Under the pieces are notes generated by a model that had not been told where the DNA came from, ran no database searches, and worked only from the letters and a program-made list of their open reading frames with translations. A program made the translations under genes and the position numbers. A DNA stretch of 55,092 nucleotides, taken from assembly GCA_964372275.1 (NCBI GenBank), contig CAYJRR010000009.1:1-55092 (forward strand). The letters run 5' to 3'. Below, piece by piece: positions 1 through 39,897 of the stretch (position 1 is its first letter; each line of letters opens with the position of its first letter). This stretch comes from an uncultured bacterium. GTDB taxonomy: Bacteria; CAYJRR01.

Positions 1-4774
<4,774 letters not shown>

Positions 4775-8735: not shown

Positions 8736-10703
8736 CTAGCGCATTCCGTGGCGCGCGAGCTTCATCTTCAGGCCGTTCCTCGACAGCCCGAGGGCGCGCG
8801 CGGTGCGCGAAAGGTTTCCGCCATGGCGCGCGAGGGATTCGAGGAGGCTCGCATGCTCGGTTGCTTTCAGTCGATCGTCGAGGGTGGCCCGCGCGGCCGC
8901 GCCCGCCTTGGGAAGCGGTCCCTCGACCGACGTCCACGGGGTCGACCGGACGAGGGATCTCCGGTCCCGTGCGTCGGCCGAGGCGGCGGCGAGCTCGGCG
9001 ACCACCTCCACGAGGCGTCGCTCCTCGCGCGAGAACCGTGGATCGCTCTCCCGCCGATCGAGCACCAGGCGGCCGATCTCGAGCCCGGAGCGACTGCGCA
9101 GAACGACCGGCAGCCGAAGATCCCCCGGACCGGGCACCGCCGCGAAAAGCGCCCGACCTCGCAGGGCGACGACGCGATGGAACTCGGGCGAGCCGAGCGC
9201 GACCGACCCACCGCGGGCCGGCACCAACGCCAGCGCGACCTCGAGCGCGCGGGAGGCCGCCTCCTCCGGTGACTGCGCGTCGAGCATCGGCAGCAACGCT
9301 TCGAGCGTTTCGGGTTGGCCGCGCGCGCCCCGGGCACTCAGGCCCTCCGAAAGGAGACGGTCGACGGTGGCCGCGGACTCGACGTTCCCGCTCCGGCTCC
9401 ACGCGGCGCGCGCGAGCGAGAGAAGCTCGAGCGCGCGCGGCATGTCGGCTGCCGTCTCCGCGGCGGCGGCCGCGTCCATCCAGGCCCGTCCGGCGAGGAG
9501 GTGCCAGCCGTACCGTTCGAGACGGCGCGCGGCGCTCGACAGGCGTGCGACGGGCGATCCGATCTGAGCGAACCGGTCGCCGAGCCCGCCGATCCACTCC
9601 TCGATGGCCCCCGCCGCAATCGAGCCGGCGCGCGCCAGGTCGGAGAGCTCCCGGCGGGCCGACTCCGCCTTGACCCCGTCGCGCGCGCGAAGCGCGCACT
9701 CGGCGGAGAGTCCGAGGCGCAACGCGGCGAGCGCGCGGGGGAGCAGATGCGCACCCGACTTCGCGCGATCCGCCGCCACCTGTCCCCGATGGAGATCTCC
9801 GGCGGCCGTCGCGGCGATGCACGTGGTCAACTGCGTCGCTGCGATCCACCGGGGATCTCCGGCCAACTCGGCGGCCACGACGGCGTCGTCCAGGCGCTCC
9901 CGCGAATCCGGCGCGCCGCAGCCGAGCGCCGCGACCGCTCGCGCGACGGCCGCGGCGGCGTCCGCAACGAGGTCGTCCGCGGACTCGGCCGCCTCCTCGG
10001 CGCGCAGCGCCAGGCGCTCGGCCTCCGAGGTCCGGCCATCGATCGCCGCGGCGGCGGCTCGCATTGCCCAGCCGGCGGCGCGATTCGATCGGTCGACACG
10101 TCGCACGGCGCGAAAGGCTCCGCTCGGGCGTTGCTCCGGTCCCGGACGGCGGCGGGGAGCCTCGGCCGGTTCGACGCGCACGCGGCGCAGCCGGATCTGC
10201 GCGCCGAGCGCGCGGTCGGCGAGGTCCCAGGGGTCGTTCTCGCGGGGAGGATGAGAGAGAACCGCCACCGAGACCGCCCTCGACGAAGGGCCGGGGACCG
10301 CCAGGCGGCGTGCCAACGCCCACCAGGCGCGCACGGTGGCGTGGTCGGCCCGTTGCGCCTCCTCGAGCACCAGGACCAACGGACCTTCGGCACGCTCGAT
10401 GACCGACATCGCCGCGCGCGCGAACGCGGCCGGCCCCGATCCGGGGGGAAGCGAGCGGGCGAGGGAAGGGGACAGCAGGCGCAGCAGCGCGCGCGCGGCG
10501 AGCGGTTCCTCCTCGCCGGGAACGGCGAGCCCCTTCACCCGGGCCGTGACGACGCGGCCACCGTCGCCGCCCACGGCCGCCGAGAGCTCGGCGAGCGAAC
10601 TCCCGATCGCAGGGTGCGCCTCGACGATCAGGATCCGCTCCGCGGCCTCGTCCCCCTGCCACGCGCGCAGCGCCGCTTCGCGAATCCGTTCGAGCCAGAG
10701 CAC
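8736..10703 (-). CDS. Putative transcriptional regulator: degenerate STAND/TPR-like region, GAF-like segment and C-terminal Fis-type HTH
   Basis: C-terminal HGGNLSRTARALGLSRNGLKMKL (HTH_8). LVLVLEEAQRAD resembles an AAA_16 Walker B. IGRLVLDRRESDPRFSREERRLVE resembles a GAF C-terminus. Start uncertain. Confidence 0.6.
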   Translation of the reverse strand: MLWLERIREAALRAWQGDEAAERILIVEAHPAIGSSLAELSAAVGGDGGRVVTARVKGLAVPGEEEPLAARALLRLLSPSLARSLPPGSGPAAFARAAMSVIERAEGPLVLVLEEAQRADHATVRAWWALARRLAVPGPSSRAVSVAVLSHPPRENDPWDLADRALGAQIRLRRVRVEPAEAPRRRPGPEQRPSGAFRAVRRVDRSNRAAGWAMRAAAAAIDGRTSEAERLALRAEEAAESADDLVADAAAAVARAVAALGCGAPDSRERLDDAVVAAELAGDPRWIAATQLTTCIAATAAGDLHRGQVAADRAKSGAHLLPRALAALRLGLSAECALRARDGVKAESARRELSDLARAGSIAAGAIEEWIGGLGDRFAQIGSPVARLSSAARRLERYGWHLLAGRAWMDAAAAAETAADMPRALELLSLARAAWSRSGNVESAATVDRLLSEGLSARGARGQPETLEALLPMLDAQSPEEAASRALEVALALVPARGGSVALGSPEFHRVVALRGRALFAAVPGPGDLRLPVVLRSRSGLEIGRLVLDRRESDPRFSREERRLVEVVAELAAASADARDRRSLVRSTPWTSVEGPLPKAGAAARATLDDRLKATEHASLLESLARHGGNLSRTARALGLSRNGLKMKLARHGMR

Positions 10704-13589: not shown

Positions 13590-14372
13590 CTAGCGCGCCT
13601 TGAACGAGGGTGCTCGCTTCTCGACGAAGGCGCGGAACCCTTCGCGCGCGTCGTCCGACGCGAACAGCCCCGCCTGCAGCTCGCGTTCGAGCGCCAGGCC
13701 CTGCTCGAGTCCCACCTCCAGGCCCGACTGCACCGCGCGCTTGATCCGTCCGACGGCGAGCGACGCCTTTCCCGGCGGGCAGAAGCCGCGGGCATACTCG
13801 ATCACGCGCTCCCGGAAGCGCTCGCTCTCGAACAACTTGTCGACCAGCCCCGCCTCCTTGGCTTCGAGCGGCGACATCGTTCGACCCTCGACCATCATCT
13901 CGATCGCGCGCGAGCGGCCGACGATCCGCGCCAGCCTCTGCGTTCCGCCGGTTCCGGGCAGCACCCCGAGCGTCACCTCCGGAAGCCCGATCTTCCCGGC
14001 CTCCTTGCGGGCGATACGGAGGTCGGCCGCCAGCGCGATCTCGAGTCCGCCGCCGACGGTGTGCCCGTTGAGCGCCGCGATCACCAGCTTCGGCGTCTGC
14101 TCCAGCCGCAGGAGCGTCTCGTTGGCGTGGAGGCAGAAGTAGTACTTGTACGTGGGGTCGGCCTTCGACAGCATGTCGATGTTCGCCCCCGCGCAGAAGA
14201 ACTTCTCGCCGTTCCCGGTCAGCACCAGCACGTGCACCGCGGGGTCGAAGCGCGCCCGCAGGATCGCGTCGTCGATCGCGCGGAACATCTCGTAGGAGTA
14301 GGCGTTCGCCGGCGGGTCGTTCAGCGTGAGCAGGGCGACGCCGTCGCGGGACTCGTACTCGCAAAGAGGCAT
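13590..14372 (-). CDS. Enoyl-CoA hydratase/isomerase
   Basis: C-terminal part of ORF 13590..16904: FFCAGANI, GHTVGGGLEIALAADLR and GLPEVTLGVLPGTGGTQRL. Confidence 0.92.
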   Translation of the reverse strand: MPLCEYESRDGVALLTLNDPPANAYSYEMFRAIDDAILRARFDPAVHVLVLTGNGEKFFCAGANIDMLSKADPTYKYYFCLHANETLLRLEQTPKLVIAALNGHTVGGGLEIALAADLRIARKEAGKIGLPEVTLGVLPGTGGTQRLARIVGRSRAIEMMVEGRTMSPLEAKEAGLVDKLFESERFRERVIEYARGFCPPGKASLAVGRIKRAVQSGLEVGLEQGLALERELQAGLFASDDAREGFRAFVEKRAPSFKAR

Positions 14373-15439
14373 GCGGGAGAGGTAGACGACGGGGATCCGA
14401 GTGTCAACGTGTCGTCCGCGCCGCCGGCGGCCGCGATGGTGATCGCGGAATGGCGGACGGAACCGGCGGCGGCCCGGTCCTCGACGTCGAGCCAGAACGC
14501 CATCCCCGGATTGACGAGCTCCACCATCCCCACCGGTCCGTCGAATCCGTTGGGATAGCTCTCCTCGGCGACCCGCACGCTGCCGGTCACGAATCCGGCG
14601 AGGACGCGGCGGATCCCCGGGTCGTCCGACGCGGGCCGTTCCCACACGACGTCCTGGGAGAAGACGAGGTGCCAGGCGTACTCCGCCTGCTCGAAGACGA
14701 CGGACGATCCCTGGGCCGATCCCGGGAACGGAGCCGTCTCGAAGCCGTTGTCGACGAACGCGGCGTCGTCGCCGGTGGTGATCCGTCCGCCTCCCGTCGA
14801 GGCGAGCGAAAAGAGGCGCAACGACTGCCCGCGGGGTCCGAGCCCCCCTTTGGGGACCATCGGCAGCGGGCCGATGTCGAGGAACCAGACGAACCGCGTC
14901 CAGTCGCCCGCGGCCTCCGCGTCCTTCGCCGGATCGAGCGTCGCTCCGAGGTCCCGGGGCCGGGTGGTGAACCAGGCGACGCTGCTGGGGGAGATGTCGC
15001 ACTCCCCGTGCTCCGGATCGTGGTACCGGCCGGAGACGATCGTGCCGACCAGCGTCCGCTCGTGGAAGCGGAGATCGTCGCGGATCCGGCCGCGGAAGCG
15101 CCAATCGACTGGCGCCGAGAACGGATCGGGACGGAGGAACCGGAGCGACACGACGTCGCCGAGCCGTTCCCCGAAGGCCACCTGCCGCCCGGCCCACGTG
15201 ACCCGGACCTGCCCGCGCGACTCCTCGAACCGGAACGTCTGCCCTTCGACGTTGACGGGGTAGAGGAGGTCCCGCGTGTGCAGCTCGTCCGGATCGTCTT
15301 CGCAGGCGACGGCGAGGTGGAACGCGGCCCGCAAATACTCCCCGTCGAGCGGGAGCCGCTCGCCGCCGCCGCACCCCGTGGCCAGCGGAAGCAGGAGAGC
15401 CGCGGCGTTTCGTCGCGGGACCGGGGAGGCACGGCGCAT
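14321..15439 (-). CDS. Hypothetical lipoprotein
   Basis: Signal MRR...AAALLLPLATG-C. No recognised domain. The 3' end overlaps the ECH gene by 52 nt. Confidence 0.6.
   Translation of the reverse strand: MRRASPVPRRNAAALLLPLATGCGGGERLPLDGEYLRAAFHLAVACEDDPDELHTRDLLYPVNVEGQTFRFEESRGQVRVTWAGRQVAFGERLGDVVSLRFLRPDPFSAPVDWRFRGRIRDDLRFHERTLVGTIVSGRYHDPEHGECDISPSSVAWFTTRPRDLGATLDPAKDAEAAGDWTRFVWFLDIGPLPMVPKGGLGPRGQSLRLFSLASTGGGRITTGDDAAFVDNGFETAPFPGSAQGSSVVFEQAEYAWHLVFSQDVVWERPASDDPGIRRVLAGFVTGSVRVAEESYPNGFDGPVGMVELVNPGMAFWLDVEDRAAAGSVRHSAITIAAAGGADDTLTLGSPSSTSPACLFASTSPATASPCSR
14379..14407 (-). promoter_or_regulatory. Sigma-70-type promoter giving a leaderless ECH transcript
   Basis: Minus strand reads TTGACA-N17-TACCTC-N6-ATG(14372). 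Confidence 0.55.
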
Positions 15440-15494
15440 CGACGTTCGAGTCTACCGCAGCGGCCTGGCGCCCACGGGTGGTATAACGCAGGCC

Positions 15495-17006
15495 TTGCGC
15501 ATCCACGTCGGCAACTCGAGGCCCGCCAGCCTCCTCTCGATCCTCCTCCGTCCCGTCCCCCCGGAGACGAAGGCGAACCTCGCGCGCGCCTGGGCGCGGC
15601 TCCCGGAGTGGCTGCGGACGGCCCAACAGATGTACGGACGCCACGCGGAAGGGTGCGGCGCGACGATCGGCGCGATGCCGCGCTGCGACTTCGCCTGCAC
15701 CGGCTGCTACCTCGGCGAGGAGGCGAATCAGATTCCGCCGCAGCCGATCGAGGAGATCAAGGCGCAGATCCGTCGGCTCCGACCCACGCTGGGCTACAAG
15801 GGGAACCTGCAGCTCACCGACGGCGAGATCACCCTCCGGCCGGCCGAGGAGGTGATCGAGCTCCTGCGGTATTCGTACGAAATCGGACTGATCCCGATGG
15901 TGATGACCCACGGCGATACCTTCCGTCGCCAACCGGGGCTCTTGAAGCGCCTGGTCGCGGAAGGCGGGATGCGCGAGGTCTCGATCCACGTCGACACCAC
16001 GCAGCGTGGGCGGAAGGGGGCGGCCTACAAGAACGCGCGGACCGAGGAGGCGCTCAACCCGCTCCGGGACGAGTTCGCCGGGATGCTGCGCGCCGTCCGC
16101 CGCGAGACCGGCGCGTTCGTGCAGGCGGCGACGACGATGACGGTCGAGCCCGGGAACCTCGACGGCGTGCCGGCCGTGATGCGCTGGCTCACGCGCAACG
16201 CCGACGTCTTCAAGATGATCAGCTTCCAGCCGATGGCGCAGGTCGGGCGGACGGTCGACGGGCTGGGGGGCGGGGTCGAGGTCGACCGGCTCTGGGAGAA
16301 GATCGCCGAGGGCCTCTACGGTCCGGAGGCCGATCCGCGGGAGCTGACCCGCGGTCAGATGTGGTTGGGTCACTCGGCCTGCAACCGTTACGTTCCCGGC
16401 TACGTCGTCCGGCAGGAGGGGAGCGAGCCGGTCTTCCGTCCGGCGCGCGTCTCGGGGGACCCGATCGACGAGGCCTCCGGCGAGCGCTTCTGGCGGAGGT
16501 TCGGCGGATTGAGCTTCCGTGGCGACTCCCGCGCGCAGGCGATGGCGCGCGCCGTCGGGGTGGTGGCGCGCGCGGTCGACCTGATCGTCCGCGATCGTGG
16601 GCGCTACGTACCGCACCTGTTGCGCCGCCTCGATCCGGCGCGCCCCGGTCGACTGCTGCTCCGGTGGATCCGGGGCCGGGCGAAGGTGAACGGCCTGCTG
16701 ATCGTCAGTCACCACTTCATGGGGAAGGAGCAGGTCGCGACGCCGGCCGGCCGGGAGCGGATCGACCTGTGCGTCTTCCACGTGCCGGTCGGCGATCGGC
16801 TGGTCTCGATGTGCGAGGTCAACGCCACCGGAATCCGCGATGCCTACTACGAGGACATCCGCGCGGGGCGGGTTCCCGGTTCGACGCCGGTTCTGCGGGG
16901 ACATCCGGCCTTGCCGGTCTTCGTCGCGTCGGCAGCCGGACCGGGCGGCGCGGCCGGGACCGCGGCCGCGGCCGACTCCGATACCGCGACTGCGGCCGAG
17001 GGATGA
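15495..17006 (+). CDS. Radical SAM protein, distantly Tes/GDGT-MAS (MJ0619)-like
   Basis: CDFACTGC cluster motif plus SFQPMAQVGR, GHSAC, HHFM and ERIDLCVFHV...SMCEVNA. Start (TTG 15495, just after TGGTATAAC) is uncertain. Confidence 0.85.
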   Translation: MRIHVGNSRPASLLSILLRPVPPETKANLARAWARLPEWLRTAQQMYGRHAEGCGATIGAMPRCDFACTGCYLGEEANQIPPQPIEEIKAQIRRLRPTLGYKGNLQLTDGEITLRPAEEVIELLRYSYEIGLIPMVMTHGDTFRRQPGLLKRLVAEGGMREVSIHVDTTQRGRKGAAYKNARTEEALNPLRDEFAGMLRAVRRETGAFVQAATTMTVEPGNLDGVPAVMRWLTRNADVFKMISFQPMAQVGRTVDGLGGGVEVDRLWEKIAEGLYGPEADPRELTRGQMWLGHSACNRYVPGYVVRQEGSEPVFRPARVSGDPIDEASGERFWRRFGGLSFRGDSRAQAMARAVGVVARAVDLIVRDRGRYVPHLLRRLDPARPGRLLLRWIRGRAKVNGLLIVSHHFMGKEQVATPAGRERIDLCVFHVPVGDRLVSMCEVNATGIRDAYYEDIRAGRVPGSTPVLRGHPALPVFVASAAGPGGAAGTAAAADSDTATAAEG

Positions 17007-17908: not shown

Positions 17909-18994
17909 TCACTCGCGGCGGACGGCCCGCCGCAGCGACCGCACGTAGTGGAGCGGCTGTCCTCGCCAGGCCCTCTCGCTGGAGCTCTTGCCGAAGCGGC
18001 CGCCGAGTTCGCCCAGGAAGGTGTAGACGATCCGCGTCCTCCCTGGGCCGTCCGGCTCGATCCGGGTCTCCCCTTCGACGCGCTCGATGCGCACGCCGAC
18101 GCCCGGTGGATCGTCGCTCCGGGCGTCGTTGCGCCAGCGAAGCGTGGCTCGGTCACCGGATGGGTCCCGCGTCCACGAATACGCGACGACCGCATCGCGG
18201 GGACGAAGCGGCCACGGATAGGGCCAGACCAGGTGCAACCGGGCCCCTTCGCCTTCGGAGAGCGGACCGAGGACGGTGACCGCCTTCAACACCGGGTCGA
18301 ACGTCGCCCGGTAGCGCGCGAAGTCGGCGAGGTGGGTCGCGACCGCCGCGGGGGGCGCATCGATCGTGGCGGTGGCGCGAATCCAGGGAGCTCCCTCCGG
18401 TACGCGGGCGATCTCCACCGCGATCCCGTCCTCTTCGAACCACGGGCGGAAGTCGCCGGCCGGCGGTTCGGCCCCGGCGGGCGAGGAGGCGGCCGCGAAT
18501 ACCCCGAGCATCGCGATCGTCGCCGCCGGCCCCGCGCCGCGCGCCGGCCCTCGCGGCGCCAGCCGCCACAGCAGACCGGAGAGCAGGACCAGCACCACGT
18601 CCTCCAGCGGCGAGTACCAGCGGAGCGGCCGCGCGAGGAAGACGCCGAAGCAACCGCAGTTCGGGATCTCGAGGCCGCGGGCGAGCGCGATCGAGAGCCA
18701 CGCGCCGTACCCCGCGTTGGAGGCGACGAGCAACAGGGCCGCCTCGCGTAGCCGGAAGCCGGCCAGGGTCCAGAGCCCGAGCGCGATCTCGACGGCGGCG
18801 ACCGCGACGGCGAGCGGCAGCTGGGCCGCCGGCGGGAGGACGCGATAGGTGTCCAGCACCGCCGCGAACCCGGCGAGGTCGAGCGCCTTCCCCACCCCCG
18901 CGCCGAGCGTCACCACCCCCAGGACCGCGCGGAGCCCCGTGCGCGTCCAGGCCGTGCGGCGTGTCTCCGGGATGCCGCCGATCGCGGAGGTCAC
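17909..18994 (-). CDS. MauE/DoxX-like membrane domain fused to a START/SRPBCC lipid-binding domain
   Basis: N-terminal transmembrane helices with LARGLEIPNCGCFG. C-terminal PWPLRPRDAVV and ELGG START motifs. Confidence 0.75.
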   Translation of the reverse strand: MTSAIGGIPETRRTAWTRTGLRAVLGVVTLGAGVGKALDLAGFAAVLDTYRVLPPAAQLPLAVAVAAVEIALGLWTLAGFRLREAALLLVASNAGYGAWLSIALARGLEIPNCGCFGVFLARPLRWYSPLEDVVLVLLSGLLWRLAPRGPARGAGPAATIAMLGVFAAASSPAGAEPPAGDFRPWFEEDGIAVEIARVPEGAPWIRATATIDAPPAAVATHLADFARYRATFDPVLKAVTVLGPLSEGEGARLHLVWPYPWPLRPRDAVVAYSWTRDPSGDRATLRWRNDARSDDPPGVGVRIERVEGETRIEPDGPGRTRIVYTFLGELGGRFGKSSSERAWRGQPLHYVRSLRRAVRRE

Positions 18995-19749
18995 GGGCGG
19001 TTCAGCGTCCAGTCGTAGGGGATGAACTCGACCCGGTAGTCGCCGGGGATCTTCCGCTCGCGGTAGCGGTTCGCGTAGGCGATCAGCGACGGCTCGGCCG
19101 CGAGGAAGTCCTCGGTGTAGAACTTCAGGATCGACGAGAGCCTCACGGTCTTGCGTCCGTCGTCGACCTGGACGTTCCGCTCCTCGTTGAGGAACAGGAC
19201 CGCGCCCTCCTCGAGCTGCTTCTCCAGCGACGCCGCGCGATACGGTTCCTGCGGGAGCCGCGGGCAGCCGCGCACCATGCAGTTGAGGGCGAAGTGGATC
19301 CGCGGCTCACCGAACGGGCGGATGACGTCGTTCTCGTACGCGTAGAGCGACATCGGCGCGCCGTCGATCGCGAGCGTCGTCAGGAAGAAGAAGCGGATCT
19401 TGTCGACCGGCCGGACGTCGTTGGTGACGGCGTTGAACATCGCCAACGCGTTGTAGGTGTTCAGGTGATAGGCGAGCGCGTCCTCCTTGGACGGAAAGGC
19501 CGCCGGCGTCGAGCGCGGGCCGTTCGCCGCCGCCCACGCGACGTAGGCGTGGAGGTCGGCGGGCTCGCGCGTCACCCGGTCGAAGTCGATCCGGCCGCGC
19601 CCGTCGACGTTCGCCGCCAGCACGCGACCCCAGGCCTGGTACGCGGCATCGGCCGAGGGAAGGGGGGCGTGCGCCGGGACCGGCGGCGGCAGCCGGCGGA
19701 CGCATCCGGCGAGCGACAGGAACAGTGTCAGCGCGGCGAGGAGCCTCAC
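18991..19749 (-). CDS. DUF547 domain lipoprotein
   Basis: Lipobox LAGC plus LAYHLNTYNA, EPRIHFALNC..GCP, LSSILKFY.EDF and YDWTLN. GTG start overlaps the ALDH stop. Confidence 0.88.
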   Translation of the reverse strand: MRLLAALTLFLSLAGCVRRLPPPVPAHAPLPSADAAYQAWGRVLAANVDGRGRIDFDRVTREPADLHAYVAWAAANGPRSTPAAFPSKEDALAYHLNTYNALAMFNAVTNDVRPVDKIRFFFLTTLAIDGAPMSLYAYENDVIRPFGEPRIHFALNCMVRGCPRLPQEPYRAASLEKQLEEGAVLFLNEERNVQVDDGRKTVRLSSILKFYTEDFLAAEPSLIAYANRYRERKIPGDYRVEFIPYDWTLNRP

Positions 19750-34299: not shown

Positions 34300-35493
34300 A
34301 TGAGAGTTCCCTCCTGCGTCGTGTCGTTTCGCGCGTGGATCGCCCGGCCCTACGGGCTCCTGGCGCTGGCGATCCTCGCCGCGGGCTGCAACGACGCGGG
34401 GCTGGAAGAGCGCCCCGACACCTTCCACGAAGAGCACAGCCAGGCGAACTCGGTTCCGCCGGTCGACATCCTGTGGGTGGTCGACAACTCCGGCTCGATG
34501 GAACAGGAGCAGGAAAAGGTCGCCGACGGGTTCGCCGCCTTCATCCAGTACTTCCTGGCGCTCGAACTCGACTTCCACATGGCGATCACCACCACGGACA
34601 CCGATCCGACCGGCGCCCGTGGAGCGTTCGTCGGGGCGACGCGAATTCTCGATCCGGCCACCCCCGACCTGGTGAACACGTTCATGGCGAACGCCCAGGT
34701 CGGAATCGACGGAAGCGGCGACGAGCGCGGACTCGAAGCGGCTCGCCTGTCGTTGTCGGAACCGAACGCGAGCGGCGCGAACGCGGGGTTCCTCCGTCCG
34801 GACGCGCTGCTGGCGGTGATCATCGTGAGCGACGAAGAAGATGTCAGTGCGGATCCGGTCGACACCTACGTGAACTTCTTCCGCTCGCTGAAGGCGAACG
34901 ATCCGGCGCGGGTGAGCCTGTCCGGCATCGTCGGCGACGTCCCGAACGGCTGCGAGAACTCCGAGGCGCACGCCGATCCGGGCGTTCGCTACCACCAGGC
35001 GATCCAGGCGCTGAACGGGATCGCGGGGAGCATCTGCGCCGACGACTTCACGGCCATCCTCGACAGTCTCGGGAGCCTGATCTCCGGGATGACGGTGGCG
35101 CTCGAGCTCAAGCACGAGCCGACGGCGGAGTCGATCCGCGTCCGCGTCGACGGCGTGGAGGTTCCGAACGATCCACTGTACGGTTGGACCTGGAGCGCGT
35201 CCCAGAACGCGATCGTATTCGCGACCCCGGCCGCCCCCGAGGAGTGCGCGCGCATCGAGATCGACTACGTCGTCTCGCGCTGGCGGGAGGCGGACGAGCA
35301 GCCGGAGGTGGAGCCGGCGCCGGAGGGCTGCACCAACGGCGTTACGAACTCCGTCGGATCGCTCGACGGCGGCACGATCGAAGGATGCGCGATCGGCCGA
35401 TTCGGCGGTCGGCCACGGGCCGTGGCGGGGTCGGTCGCGGCGGTGCTGGCGGTGCTGCCCGTGGCGGCGGCGCTCCGCCGCCGTCGCCGCTGA
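34300..35493 (+). CDS. vWA-domain lipoprotein with a MYXO-CTERM-like C-terminal tail
   Basis: Lipobox LAAG-C, MIDAS DILWVVDNSGSM, VSDEED, and C-terminal GC + hydrophobic stretch + RRRRR. Start uncertain. Confidence 0.85.
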   Translation: MRVPSCVVSFRAWIARPYGLLALAILAAGCNDAGLEERPDTFHEEHSQANSVPPVDILWVVDNSGSMEQEQEKVADGFAAFIQYFLALELDFHMAITTTDTDPTGARGAFVGATRILDPATPDLVNTFMANAQVGIDGSGDERGLEAARLSLSEPNASGANAGFLRPDALLAVIIVSDEEDVSADPVDTYVNFFRSLKANDPARVSLSGIVGDVPNGCENSEAHADPGVRYHQAIQALNGIAGSICADDFTAILDSLGSLISGMTVALELKHEPTAESIRVRVDGVEVPNDPLYGWTWSASQNAIVFATPAAPEECARIEIDYVVSRWREADEQPEVEPAPEGCTNGVTNSVGSLDGGTIEGCAIGRFGGRPRAVAGSVAAVLAVLPVAAALRRRRR

Positions 35494-35782
35494 CGGAAAT
35501 CGCTGGCACGGCGCCCGAGTTCCGGCCCTCCAACGAGGCGCTTCCACGCCGCATCGATCGGCGGTTTAATAGCGTTCGGGTCGCGCAGGGGAGGGCGGAC
35601 GGCGGCGTCGCGTTGGGCCGCGGCAAGGGGGAGGATGTGCAGTTCGCTGCCCATCGCAATGGGCAGCACCATGCACGAGGCCGGTGGGGCGGAACTCTCC
35701 GCCTGCGCCGGCCTGTCGCGGAGCCAGGGAATTCGAGAGGTCCGGGGCGAGCTTGCCGGGGGGTTGATCGTCGTCACAACTC

Positions 35783-35798
35783 TGGCCTCCGGCATGCG
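35783..35798 (+). promoter_or_regulatory. Possible sigma-54 promoter
   Basis: TGGCCTCCGGCATGCG (GG-N10-GC), about 60 nt before ATG 35858. Confidence 0.35.
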
Positions 35799-35857
35799 TA
35801 GGATGGGTGGTTGGATCGCTGTCGTCAGGCGCTAGGCGCCTGGGAGGACGTCGAGTC

Positions 35858-37285
35858 ATGAACCGTCTCGTTCATCGCAGTCTCCTTTCGGCGGTCGTCG
35901 CGACGGGGGCGATCGCCCTGGCCGCGTGCGACGTGGCGAAAACCGACAAGCCGGCCGAGTCCCCGGAGCCGACGCCGGAGCCGACGGCCGTCTACTCGAA
36001 CGACACCTACGTGGCGGCGCTTCGCGCGGCGAGCCTCCGCCTGCGGGCGAGGCTTCCGTCGACTGCCGACCTCGACAACGTCCGCGCCAACGGCCGGATC
36101 GCCTACGAGCCGATCATCGACCGCTACCTCGATCCGGGGCAGAACACCTACCTGCAATCGCAGATGCAGGGCTTCTACCAGAGCCTTTTCCGGATGGCCG
36201 GCACGATCAGCGGGGACACGGTCAACTACAACGAGCCGTCGAACCTCGGCGTCTACCTGTTCCTCAACGATCGCCCCGTCCAGGAGATGATGACCGCCGA
36301 CTACTGCATCGGCGACAACCTCCAGACGACGACCTGCAGCGGCGGCACGCCCCAGGACAAGCGGGCCGGCGTCGTCACCAGTCAGGCCTTCCTGAAGACC
36401 TACGGAAAGAAGAGCAAGTTCAACTTCCGTCGAACCAGCGCGATGCACCAGATCTTCGCCTGCGGCGTCTACGAGGACTCGACCGATCCGGCGAAGTGGA
36501 TGCGAAGCAACGTCGCCGAGAATCTCTGGCCGTGCAACAAGGGTCAGAACGCCGCGTTCGAATCGGCCGGCGCCAGCTCGGCAAACGGTCCCGATGGGAT
36601 GCCCGGAACGTCCGACGACCAGCCGACCATGAACGTGCAGCCGTGCGCCGGCGACGACTACGTCGATCCGTCGATCATCCCTTGGCAACAGGACGGTGCC
36701 AGCCCTCGGCGCGTCAGCAAGAAGTACCAGGGCTTGCAGGCCGGGATCAATCGCCCCTGCCAGACCTGCCACGGATCGATTCTGCCGCGTCGACTGCTGT
36801 TCACCCCGTGGACGATGACTTCCGATCCGCCGACGGCGTCGGACGGCACCTACGACGCGACGCGCACCATCAAGCATGTCGAAGACTTTGTGCTGAACGC
36901 CAACAAGGACTACTGCGGCCTGGAGACGCCGGGGGACGCGACGGACGACATCGACCCCAACGCGGCCGACTGCGCGGTGGACGCGATGGCCGAATACAAC
37001 GGCATCCGGTTCGCGACGATGCGGGAGTTCTCGCAGTGGTTCACGGGGACCGAGCGATACGAAGAGTGCATGACGATCCGCCACTACAATTTCGCCCTCG
37101 GAAAGTCCCAGGGAACCTTCGGTTTGCAGGCCGGTGTCGGCGTCGAACCGGCAAGGCCGGCACAGGCGACGATCCTTCGCTATCGGCTGGTCTACGAGTC
37201 GAACGAGTGGAGCACCCGGGCCCTTTTGGGAGAGATCTTCAAGGGGAGCGAGTTCCTCGCCGCCCAGGAGGCCCAAGGGGACTAG
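35858..37285 (+). CDS. Cys-rich lipoprotein with one CxxCH motif; DUF1549/DUF1588/DUF1585-like
   Basis: GGAGG RBS, lipobox LAA-C, LRAASLRLRARLPS, EMMTADY, RAGVVTSQAFL...FAC, CQTCH and EECM...YNFALG. Confidence 0.8.
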   Translation: MNRLVHRSLLSAVVATGAIALAACDVAKTDKPAESPEPTPEPTAVYSNDTYVAALRAASLRLRARLPSTADLDNVRANGRIAYEPIIDRYLDPGQNTYLQSQMQGFYQSLFRMAGTISGDTVNYNEPSNLGVYLFLNDRPVQEMMTADYCIGDNLQTTTCSGGTPQDKRAGVVTSQAFLKTYGKKSKFNFRRTSAMHQIFACGVYEDSTDPAKWMRSNVAENLWPCNKGQNAAFESAGASSANGPDGMPGTSDDQPTMNVQPCAGDDYVDPSIIPWQQDGASPRRVSKKYQGLQAGINRPCQTCHGSILPRRLLFTPWTMTSDPPTASDGTYDATRTIKHVEDFVLNANKDYCGLETPGDATDDIDPNAADCAVDAMAEYNGIRFATMREFSQWFTGTERYEECMTIRHYNFALGKSQGTFGLQAGVGVEPARPAQATILRYRLVYESNEWSTRALLGEIFKGSEFLAAQEAQGD

Positions 37286-37310
37286 CTTCGATCGGGTGAT
37301 CGCCTCACGC

Positions 37311-37348
37311 GCGAAAGGCCGGGCAGATGCCCGGCCTTTCGCCATTTT
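37311..37348 (+). terminator. Hairpin, probable intrinsic terminator
   Basis: GCGAAAGGCCGGGCA-GA-TGCCCGGCCTTTCGC followed by CATTTT. Confidence 0.65.
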
Positions 37349-37542
37349 CCGGCTCGGAGGACGGTCGCGAGGAGGGTTCGTGGGAGGAGGGCGGTTCGGG
37401 GGTCCGGTCCCCCGAAAAATGGGCATCCTCCCTCTCAACCCCGACCCTCCGGAAAGTCACAGTTGAGAACAGTTGGCGCACTTTTCGGGAAAGTGAAATC
37501 GTTTTCAATATCTTCACGATTTGGCGTTAGGATGAATGTAGC

Positions 37543-37558
37543 TGGCCCTCGTATTGCT
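37543..37558 (+). promoter_or_regulatory. Sigma-54 (-24/-12) promoter
   Basis: TGGCCCTCGTATTGCT. Upstream are an IHF-like TTTCAATATCTT (37503-37514) and the dyad CACTTTTCGGGAAAGTG (37479-37495). Confidence 0.6.
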
Positions 37559-37620
37559 CTTATCTGTGACGACTCGCACGCGCGGTTCGACGCGCGAAGC
37601 GTCTCTTTGGAGGGGGCTCC

Positions 37621-38289
37621 ATGAATGCTACGAAGCTTGTGACGGGCTTCATCGCGGCGCTGGCGACGGTCACCGTGATCGGCTGCGGCCAGGAGTACAT
37701 GCCGCAAAGCGCCAATCCGGACCTCCCCGATCCGGACATGCCCGACCAGGCATTCCAGCTGGTGGGCGACCAGGCCCCCTACCGGTTCGTCAGCTACGAC
37801 TTCCTGCGGGCGATCCTAACCGACGTGCTGATGGTCCCGCCGGACGGGACCCCGAGCCCGAACAATCCGATGGTCGATCCCACCGGGTACTTCGAGGCGA
37901 ACAAGCTGCTCCTGGGTGCGCCGAACTACCAGGCCGATCCGACCCAGACGACGACGGCGGCGCCGATGTCGTCGGGCGGCTTCAAGGTGTGGGTGATCGC
38001 GGCGACCTCGGCGTGCGGCGAGTCGATGACGGCCGATCCGTCGCGCCTGTTCCCCGCGGGGATCGACAACTACGACCACATCTACAACGTCACCGTGGGT
38101 CGCGCCCCGACGGCCGAGGAGGAGCTCAACCTCGACGCCCTCGCGAACGCGGTGTGGCTTGACACCAAGCCGGCCACCACCACGCCCGCGCATACCATGG
38201 GTCAGCCGGTCTTCACCACCCAGGAGAAGAAGGCGGCGGCGCTGTGCAGCGCGGTCCTCGCCTCGCTCGAATTCCTCGGCGACACCTGA
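37621..38289 (+). CDS. Lipoprotein, probable partner of the DUF1501 protein
   Basis: GGAGG RBS, lipobox VIG-C, VGRAPTAEE and LCSAVLASLEFL (resembles DUF1595/DUF1553-type helices). Confidence 0.75.
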   Translation: MNATKLVTGFIAALATVTVIGCGQEYMPQSANPDLPDPDMPDQAFQLVGDQAPYRFVSYDFLRAILTDVLMVPPDGTPSPNNPMVDPTGYFEANKLLLGAPNYQADPTQTTTAAPMSSGGFKVWVIAATSACGESMTADPSRLFPAGIDNYDHIYNVTVGRAPTAEEELNLDALANAVWLDTKPATTTPAHTMGQPVFTTQEKKAAALCSAVLASLEFLGDT

Positions 38290-38358
38290 TTCGACGGCGA
38301 ACCTTCGAACGACTCTCGATCAAGATCCTTCGACGCTACGCGGAAAGGCAGGGAGAGC

Positions 38359-39897
38359 ATGGCGAACCACCCGTTCAAAGTCTCGCGGCGGTCGTTCATC
38401 TGGAGAACCAGCCAGCTCCTCTCCACACTGGGTCTCGCCTCGTCGGTGCAGGCCGGGTTGATGGACAGGATCAACCGCAAGGCGCTGCGGAAGTGGGGGC
38501 CCGAGGCCCTGGCGCATGCGGGTGACCACGTCGACTTCAGCGTGGAGATCCTGATCCGCGCCGGGTTCCAGGTGAACTGCATGTTCCCCTCNNNNNNNNN
38601 NNNNNNNNNNNNNNNNNNNNNNNNNNNNNNNNNNNNNNNNNNNNNNNNNNNNNNNNNNNNNNNNNNNNNNNNNNNNNNNNNNNNNNNNNNNGGGGCCGAG
38701 AAGCTCATCCCCTACGCGCACATGATCGCGGCCAGCGAGTGCGTGGTGCTGACCAACGGTCACACCGATGACTGGCGAAGCCGGGCGCCGAACACCACGA
38801 CGGCCGCGTGTCCCGCGGCGCTGCACACGCTCGTCGCGCCGCCGGCCGACGTGCGGGCGATCGAGTTCAACCAGTTCGGCGCCGGTCAGTCGCTGAACCG
38901 CACCGGCATGGTGACCGGGCTGACCTTCTCGAAGGTGGCCAACCGGAACGCGTTCCTGCAGCTGTACCAAGACCTGCCGATGTACTTCAACAAGGACGAG
39001 CTGCAGTTCATCATCGGCGACATCTACCAGGGCGCCTACGTCAACGGCCGCAAGGGAACGGTCGGTGCGTTGGACGACATCTTCAAGGTGCGCGAGGTGA
39101 CCGGCACCAACGAGGTGTTGGCGCTCTCGCTGGCGGGGCGCGGGCAGGCTCAGATCTCCAAGAAGGAGCAGCTCGCGATCTCCGGCTCGACGGGGACCAA
39201 CCCGATGGGCGATCCGAGCGACTTCGTCGCCAGTCCGCAGGACCGGGCGGTCGGTGGCTACGACGACACCATGATCGCCGACTTCGGCGGGGTTGCGGAG
39301 ATCAACCGGGAGATCGACGGAAACCGGGCGATCGGCAAGACGTTGGCGACGATCGCCAAGGCGTTCCGAGCCGGTGCCATGACGACGGCGACGATCACGC
39401 TCGACTCGGCCGATTGGCACAGCTTCGACAACCCCAATTCCCGCGACATGGCTACCAGCCACCAGGGACGGTGGAACATCTGGCTGGGGAACGCCATCTA
39501 CGGCTTCCTCAAGACGCTCGAGCGGACCGACAACCCGTACCGGCCGGGCGAGAAGATGATCCAGAGCTTCCTGCTCTCGGTGAGCACCGAGTTCACCCGG
39601 ACCCCGGTCCGGACCTCGGCGCCCGCACCGGTGAACACCAACAACGACGACGGCGGAACCCAGGCCTTCTTGTTCATGGGAAGCAAGGTGCGCGGCGGGT
39701 GCTACGGCAACATCACCGGGACCGGAAGCCTGATGGGGTTCAACTCGACCACCGGTCTGGTTTCCTCGGGGGACCGGCCGAACGAAGCGTCGATCTGGAA
39801 GGCGCACGGCGACTTGATGGGGGTGCCGGTCGCCACGTTGAACTCGCAGGTGTCGACGGGATCGACGATCCCGATCTTGCGGCGTCCCGGGGTCTAG
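38359..39897 (+). CDS. Tat-exported DUF1501-like protein, interrupted by an assembly gap
   Basis: Twin-arginine motif SRRSFI, C-terminal STEFTRTP and VRGG.YG. Both sides of the N run read in one frame. Confidence 0.75.
   Translation: MANHPFKVSRRSFIWRTSQLLSTLGLASSVQAGLMDRINRKALRKWGPEALAHAGDHVDFSVEILIRAGFQVNCMFPXXXXXXXXXXXXXXXXXXXXXXXXXXXXXXXXXXGAEKLIPYAHMIAASECVVLTNGHTDDWRSRAPNTTTAACPAALHTLVAPPADVRAIEFNQFGAGQSLNRTGMVTGLTFSKVANRNAFLQLYQDLPMYFNKDELQFIIGDIYQGAYVNGRKGTVGALDDIFKVREVTGTNEVLALSLAGRGQAQISKKEQLAISGSTGTNPMGDPSDFVASPQDRAVGGYDDTMIADFGGVAEINREIDGNRAIGKTLATIAKAFRAGAMTTATITLDSADWHSFDNPNSRDMATSHQGRWNIWLGNAIYGFLKTLERTDNPYRPGEKMIQSFLLSVSTEFTRTPVRTSAPAPVNTNNDDGGTQAFLFMGSKVRGGCYGNITGTGSLMGFNSTTGLVSSGDRPNEASIWKAHGDLMGVPVATLNSQVSTGSTIPILRRPGV
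38592..38691. other. Scaffold gap (100 N, true length unknown)
   Basis: Run of N. Confidence 1.

Follow-up and report, generated by a model that had tools for sequence, protein, structure and literature searches.

A rubredoxin-less radical SAM enzyme of the Tes/GDGT-MAS fold and its DUF547-linked gene system in an uncultured bacterium

The best-described system close to the enzyme reported here is the tetraether synthase Tes, also termed GDGT-MAS (MJ0619; PDB 7TOL and 7TOM; NCBIfam NF045702), in which a terminal lipid carbon lies 3.5 Å from C5', a cluster sulfur traps the radical, and amphipathic helices line the lipid pocket (PMC9433317). Gln268 and Arg275 of GDGT-MAS bind 5'-deoxyadenosine and close the site; Tyr459 is strictly conserved in archaeal homologs, and the variants M439A, Y459F and Y459L are active (PMC9433317). 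The residue numbers of GDGT-MAS are those of the PDB chain, which equal the M. jannaschii numbering plus 20, as checked with Cys102, Cys105, Phe106 and Asn108 (PMC9433317). Among other radical SAM enzymes, ArsS and ArsL form C-As bonds, ArsS by adding the adenosyl group to DMAs(III), and the cysteines of ArsL bind As(III) (PMC13598754). Lipid cross-linking is attributed to Mss and Gms, for which a radical coupling involving an auxiliary cluster has been proposed (PMC13459092). The reactions of bacterial GDGT-MAS homologs were left open by Lloyd et al. (PMC9433317), and PMC7345539 calls what is known of arsenolipid metabolism limited.

The window, i.e. the whole stretch of DNA that was analysed, comprises 55,092 nucleotides of contig CAYJRR010000009.1. 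The enzyme gene (15495..17006, plus strand) encodes 503 amino acids, is open throughout from a TTG start codon at 15495 to a TGA stop codon at 17004-17006, and is preferred by a codon-model gene caller to the overlapping shadow frames. A promoter scan found no sigma-70 consensus promoter; a TG-n-TATAAC element noticed by eye at 15477-15488, just 5' of the TTG, could be the extended -10 of a leaderless transcript. No Rfam families were detected between positions 10000 and 26000 of the window. The protein carries, in this order, Cys54 (15654..15656), a further conserved cysteine, located where the first barrel strand begins; the CxxxCxxC radical SAM cluster motif CDFACTGC (residues 64-71, C64/C68/C71; 15684..15707); the loop SFQPMAQVGR (residues 243-252, with Q245 and R252; 16221..16250); GHSAC (residues 292-296; 16368..16382), in which C296 is the first predicted ligand of an auxiliary cluster; amphipathic, basic, aromatic-rich helices (residues 346-394; 16530..16676); HHFM (residues 406-409, with His406; 16710..16721); and ERIDLC...SMCEVNA (residues 421-444; 16755..16826) with R422, N443 and the second and third predicted ligands, C426 and C440. 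An unconserved Ala/Gly-rich tail (16881..17003) was excluded from the structural model. The order of motifs from CxxxCxxC onwards is the one given in the original prediction, and the ORF translation bears it out.

The Pfam match to the protein is confined to the radical SAM core, with no SPASM match, and no transmembrane segment was found in the enzyme. The top NCBIfam matches were Tes (NF045702; 47.6 bits, cut-off 450 bits) and TrsS (NF045646; 38.7 bits, cut-off 490 bits), whereas the ArsS profile TIGR04167 was unlisted at E-values up to 1. Judged by profile score, the enzyme is not Tes. Zeng et al. counted Tes homologs at E < 1e-50 and an identity > 20-30% (PMC8941075); the values found here, E 6.4e-6 and 19%, lie outside these limits, with the M. 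jannaschii protein as reference in place of MA_1486, their query. GDGT-MAS 7TOL was nevertheless the sole PDB sequence match at E < 0.5 (phmmer with the single sequence, E 6.4e-6), and chain residues 112-506 of GDGT-MAS were matched at E 9.6e-27 when a profile built from 18 diverse members was used. The matches in the ESM Atlas were unnamed radical SAM clusters only, and phage records yielded no match to the enzyme.

An AlphaFold2 model of residues 1-462, based on an alignment of 146 sequences, had a pLDDT of 96.0 and a pTM of 0.93. Its top Foldseek matches were 7TOM and 7TOL (E 3.5e-15), followed by the next family at E 6.7e-8. VIA-align superposed 337 residues on GDGT-MAS, across the radical SAM core and the C-terminal domain (Z 28.2, rmsd 3.5, chain range 59-487, identity 19%); the runners-up were viperin (Z 17.5), MoaA (16.1) and SuiB (15.7). 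The likeness to Tes that had been read from the motifs is thus beyond chance, and we are highly confident that the enzyme has the Tes/GDGT-MAS fold with an auxiliary cluster. An identity as a MoaA/SPASM-type enzyme was rejected on the basis of these Z scores and the missing SPASM match. The structural match begins at chain residue 57-59 of GDGT-MAS. The modelled helices at residues 346-394 occupy the stretch where Tes carries helices between its cluster ligands; their net charge averages +1.8 to +2.5 per helix over the family, and a mean of 3.6 aromatic residues falls within residues 361-379. A membrane- or lipid-binding face is probable, and the helices would give the enzyme a membrane role.

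Common to the enzyme and Tes are the CxxxCxxC motif and three C-terminal cysteines with a helical insert between them; Gly145, Asp199, Gln268 and Arg275 of Tes are kept as G110, D167, Q245 and R252. C296, C426 and C440 are invariant in all 146 aligned homologs, as the prediction of conserved C-terminal cysteines requires, and in the 80 genome loci the counts were 79/79 for C296 and 76/76 for C426 and C440 among those reaching the sites. By alignment C296 corresponds to Cys338 and C440 to Cys470, whereas C426 faces Cys456 ungapped in one alignment and Cys455 with a gap in two others; Cys456 is favoured because a Chondrinema Tes-like protein has that cysteine alone. The three residues are expected to cluster in space and, together with His406, probably ligate an auxiliary [4Fe-4S] cluster. 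His406, present in 145 of the 146 homologs and in 120/120 of an actinobacterial/algal set, takes the position of the labile fourth ligand Met439 of GDGT-MAS, a replacement that the original prediction passed over, as it did the additional Cys54. Tyr459 is not kept, H429 or V430 standing opposite depending on the register, and tyrosine is absent from the commonest residues of the family at either site. The original prediction had stressed EVN in place of a Tyr-Asn of Tes; the difference exists but says little, because the tyrosine under discussion in Tes is Tyr459 and not Tyr472, the one in 'YN', and Y459F/L variants are active (PMC9433317). It had also cited HPxC as a motif of the MJ0619/Tes family; MJ0619 itself reads H-Q-H-C.

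The N-terminal part departs further from Tes. As predicted, the CxxC of a rubredoxin-like region is missing (0/146 homologs and 0/120 of the actinobacterial/algal set have a CxxC upstream of the radical SAM motif), and with it the rubredoxin site C9/C12/C33/H36; the [4Fe-4S]N site of Tes (C73, C77, C80 and a His; PMC9433317) is absent from the enzyme as well. The sole cysteine N-terminal to the radical SAM motif is C54, found in 80/80 loci, 141/146 homologs and 120/120 of the actinobacterial/algal set. It lies opposite Ile88 of GDGT-MAS, and non-GDGT Tes-like proteins have a cysteine at the same place. The near family reads DGE where Tes reads GGE, and relative to Tes polar residues were gained in the barrel interior (Cys54, Asp109, His139 and His165).

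By sequence, the enzyme belongs to a large clade to which no named Pfam or NCBIfam family corresponds. Among 8000 candidates each, the near family yielded at least 972 hits (791 representatives at 50% identity, distant ones included), and the actinobacterial/algal branch at least 2412 hits, which overlap those of the near family. In a midpoint-rooted tree of 48 rows, 44 rubredoxin-less proteins were split at 100/100 from four rubredoxin-bearing Tes-like plasmid proteins, which served as outgroups in trees containing no authentic Tes sequence; their Tes scores were 286-324, with the cut-off at 450. This separation, with the conserved auxiliary-cluster cysteines, agrees with the prediction of a distinct, divergent subfamily. 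[quoted passage not shown] The open-licence literature searched contained neither a description of the clade nor any link between Tes and arsenic, and the clade could be among the 2,525 network sequences of Supplementary Fig. 5 of PMC9433317.

The clade is widespread, its hosts including Gemmatimonadota, Planctomycetota, Proteobacteria, Streptomyces and red algae. In a quick tree, six algal rows formed a group inside a mainly actinobacterial subclade (SH-aLRT 100); named members come from Porphyridium (on a 5.7 Mb contig), Rhodosorus, Chondrus, Agarophyton and Gracilariopsis, in addition to a 'Mesvir1' protein, which we take to be from Mesostigma. Of the algal members P0248, P0273, P0274, P0392, P0394 and P0395, several have long N-terminal extensions that resemble targeting peptides. 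For the arsenic reading preferred below, the named red-algal members count in favour; against it counts that no brown alga or chlorophyte was named among the 120 rows listed, most of which are nameless. All seven cysteines and His406 are retained in 120/120 of this set; the exact reaction of the algal and actinobacterial proteins need not equal that of the window's enzyme, because the identity is 33% over 226 residues.

In the window, the enzyme gene is translationally coupled to a nucleoside hydrolase gene (PF01156; 17003..17890, plus strand), whose start codon overlaps the radical SAM stop codon (ATGA). Two genes on the minus strand face this pair: one (17909..18994) encodes a protein that combines a MauE/DoxX membrane domain with a lipid-binding domain of the START type, and the other a DUF547 protein (18991..19749) whose lipoprotein-like leader was recognised by eye and whose invariant residues, H-F-A-L-x-C-x-x-x-x-C-P-x-L, include a CxxxxC pair. 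The model of the DUF547 protein had a pLDDT of 84; its best fold match (Z 6.0) was not a clear one among the solved folds and therefore gives no hint of function. ArsS, ArsM, TIGR04282, TIGR04283 and VTT proteins were not found in the 55 kb window, which of the linked set DUF547/VTT/PRK06370 holds DUF547 only. Elsewhere in the window, a divergent 372-aa lipoprotein-like ORF (14321-15439, minus strand) has no Pfam or NCBIfam match and was not seen in related loci, a long, repetitive, surface-protein-like ORF occupies 2-4666 (minus strand), and a series of lipoprotein-like genes extends over 34321-39894.

The gene context was compared in 80 genome loci, the best 80 of 142 relatives (63 from Gemmatimonadota, 7 from Planctomycetota, 5 from Alphaproteobacteria, 4 from Acidobacteriota and 1 from Binatia). 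Loci were counted by tblastn; the codon-model gene caller missed the enzyme gene in 5/80. DUF547 was the steadiest partner, present in 62/80 loci (in 52 within 500 nt) across four taxa, and in 36 of the 41 loci having 4 kb on each side, leaving five fully flanked loci without it. Further partners were VTT (31 loci), a PRK06370-type flavoprotein (27), rhodanese (10), TIGR04283 (10), Nterm_to_SelD (10), CDP-alcohol transferase (9), a PrdB-like protein (7), TIGR04282 (6), TIGR04169 (3), ArsS (2) and an ArsM-like protein (2). One locus (L031) has the radical SAM gene, the hydrolase, DUF547 and then MauE, i.e. the window's four genes in one run, and MauE and DUF547 also lie near the sister-clade homolog of Roseomonas, where the order is TIGR04282-DUF547-rSAM. 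DUF547 is fused to the enzyme in P0156 (the fusion in P0216 is internally deleted), and a TIGR04283 glycosyltransferase scoring above its cut-off is fused to it in P0084 of the near subclade and in P0245 and P0358, so that the fusions cover the near, sister and actinobacterial subclades. In plasmid loci of the sister clade, DUF547 was adjacent in 4/4 and arsS present in 3/4; the Cupriavidus locus reads arsS, FAD oxidoreductase, VTT, TIGR04283, TIGR04282, MTA phosphorylase and then rSAM-DUF547, and the Burkholderia locus arsS...rSAM-DUF547. We regard it as very likely that the enzyme is tied to an 'arsenosugar-associated' DUF547/VTT/TIGR04283/ArsS gene system. The notion that it replaces ArsS was rejected, as the two co-occur in some loci.

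For the Tes-fold enzyme in this gene system, we infer lipid C-H activation with arsenic capture as the simplest role. The preferred reading, to which we assign a probability of roughly 0.38, is that a membrane-associated radical enzyme of the gene system activates a lipid C-H bond and that a heteroatom, most likely arsenic, traps the radical; the chemistry is put forward tentatively. Of the enzyme's two [4Fe-4S] clusters, one would cleave SAM and the other would be auxiliary. The amphipathic helices would hold a lipid chain or a lipid-linked intermediate, from which the 5'-deoxyadenosyl radical would remove hydrogen. The substrate radical would be captured by the heteroatom, most likely the arsenic of a methylated As(III) species that is held close to Cys54 or to the auxiliary cluster, and the outcome would be an organoarsenic lipid and not a C-C bond between two tails. 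The nucleoside hydrolase coupled to the enzyme may take adenine off an adenosyl intermediate or dispose of 5'-deoxyadenosine; a phosphorylase, or hydrolase plus kinase, followed by TIGR04282 and TIGR04283, might move an ArsS-derived sugar to an acceptor. The VTT protein presumably has a flippase-like role, in a system that also comprises a membrane glycosyltransferase, an exported DUF547 protein and enzymes of thiol redox chemistry. ArsS and ArsL, although likewise radical SAM enzymes, belong to other families and transfer pieces of SAM to arsenic, as opposed to the lipid C-H activation proposed here.

Terminal dimethylarsinoyl fatty acids and hydrocarbons are known structures. In a narrower form of the preferred reading, which we consider unlikely, the clade would be the missing arsenolipid synthase, abstracting hydrogen from a terminal methyl group through the Tes tunnel and joining the carbon to dimethylarsenic, with terminal dimethylarsinoyl fatty acids or hydrocarbons arising from an acyl chain or a hydrocarbon, respectively. 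The arsenic reading is weakened in general because any of the four arsenosugar-named families occurs in only 12/80 loci, ArsS in only 2/80 and none in the window. The names themselves appear to rest on co-occurrence, and we know of no biochemical test behind the label 'arsenosugar' for TIGR04282 and TIGR04283. A further point against the reading is that 63 of the 80 loci come from one phylum, Gemmatimonadota.

Sulfur or selenium is indicated equally by the rhodanese (10/80), UGA-containing PrdB-like (7/80) and Nterm_to_SelD (10/80) genes. Insertion of either element is unlikely but the most probable of the alternatives. The reaction would go no further than an S-C intermediate of the Tes type, from which a lipid or sugar-lipid would be set free in thiolated or selenylated form; rhodanese and a disulfide reductase would resupply the cluster in the manner of lipoyl or biotin synthase. 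Tes does make a lipid-S bond at its C-terminal cluster (PMC9433317), the rhodanese gene usually lies directly downstream of the enzyme, and the PRK06370-type flavoprotein (27/80) and Nterm_to_SelD would fit such a cycle. The rhodanese, however, occurs only in loci of Gemmatimonadota and falls short of the NF045521 cut-off, the enzyme gene has no in-frame TGA in any of the 80 loci, and the TIGR04283 fusions and arsS neighbours are left unexplained. In the PrdB-like neighbours, an in-frame TGA within a UxxC-like motif (VPV-U-P-x-C) was seen in 4/4 genes checked (L021:3626-4363, L026:1700-2438, L027:5750-6492 and L028:7020-7766, all on the minus strand); these are probably selenoproteins, which speaks for this alternative.

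The nucleoside hydrolase bears on a further alternative, judged improbable, in which a lipid or an arsenical would take up the 5'-deoxyadenosyl radical; the neighbouring hydrolase or phosphorylase would then cut off adenine, so that a ribosyl product remains. HpnH and HpnG act likewise on hopanoids, by adenosyl addition and adenine removal, and ArsS is the parallel for DMAs(III). Besides its translational coupling here, the hydrolase lies directly 3' of the enzyme in 6/80 loci according to protein clustering (4 by the tblastn-based count), two of which continue with an MTR-kinase-like gene; the Cupriavidus homolog is directly preceded by an MTA phosphorylase, and sugar transfer is consistent with the glycosyltransferase fusions. 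Yet the hydrolase occurs in those 6/80 loci only, nucleoside hydrolases of this kind also merely clear 5'-deoxyadenosine, and the presence of ArsS alongside in some loci implies that the enzyme is no simple substitute for it.

The original prediction had assigned the auxiliary cluster to C(sp3)-C(sp3) coupling of lipid tails, which is unsupported as stated because of the histidine at the labile Met site, the red algal and Streptomyces hosts and the DUF547/TIGR04283/ArsS context. To our knowledge, neither red algae nor Streptomyces make membrane-spanning lipids. A Tes-like coupling of two lipid chains into bacterial spanning lipids is thus a poor candidate, even though fold and C-terminal cysteines are as in Tes, the N-terminal metal sites that the enzyme lacks have no assigned role (PMC9433317), and the losses at Met439 and Tyr459 need not abolish coupling, because the M439A and Y459F/L variants of Tes are active (PMC9433317). 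In addition, 4/80 loci are from Acidobacteriota, whose spanning-lipid enzyme awaits identification (PMC13159169). Against this stand the score of 47.6 versus 450 bits at 19% identity, the merely scattered lipid genes nearby (CDP-alcohol transferase in 9/80 loci) and the assignment of the known bacterial synthases to another family, Mss, in PMC13159169. Gms has a SPASM domain (PMC13459092), which the enzyme lacks by Pfam.

Least probable is that the enzyme acts on a small soluble compound or on a cofactor belonging to the gene system, with the helices merely a membrane tether: the polar residues gained in the barrel (Cys54, Asp109, His139, His165) and PhnD-like transporters near relatives of the enzyme would suit it, but partners such as START/MauE, VTT, CDP-alcohol transferase and the membrane GT2 suggest lipid-linked substrates.

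The fold and the gene linkage are well supported, the preferred chemistry is a tentative proposal, and the novel radical chemistry on a lipid that had been predicted is plausible. As a natural minimal Tes, the clade bears on the need for the two N-terminal metal sites and on the effect of a histidine in place of the labile methionine. Weak Tes matches should not be tallied as GDGT producers. Members occur in Chondrus, Gracilariopsis, Porphyridium and Streptomyces, and because the candidate enzyme has cultured hosts, arsenolipid metabolism becomes testable; the arsenolipid-synthase reading, if true, would mean that soil bacteria and edible red seaweeds alike arsenylate C(sp3)-H bonds of lipids directly.

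Several neighbourhoods deserve separate mention. Near the enzyme, another radical SAM family recurs that resembles Rv1681 but scores below the cut-off (L004:14800-16608, L006:2318-3295, L018:11638-12522 and L081:11311-12258), twice with a metallophosphoesterase-like gene. In four Gemmatimonadales loci (L001, L005, L009 and L016), phytoene synthase-like and acyltransferase genes lie 5' of DUF547-rSAM-rhodanese, with a phytoene desaturase in three. Tes itself differs from the enzyme in hosts and gene context, whereas some rubredoxin-bearing Tes-like proteins share neighbours with it: of the four outgroup loci, one has DUF547 (Haloarcula), one an ArsC-like gene and methyltransferases (Halorarius), one an Rv1681-type cluster (Mycolicibacterium) and one none of these. 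On the Mycolicibacterium plasmid (L086:350-7351), the Tes-like gene has as neighbours an acyl-CoA dehydrogenase gene, a PhnD-like gene, a second radical SAM gene and CcdA/thioredoxin genes. Haloarchaeal Tes-like genes (L085:5191-8539 and L088:4076-7093) adjoin ArsC-like, methyltransferase, DUF3179 or DUF547 genes, and these neighbourhoods offer a lead on the lack of GDGT from halobacterial Tes homologs reported in PMC8941075.
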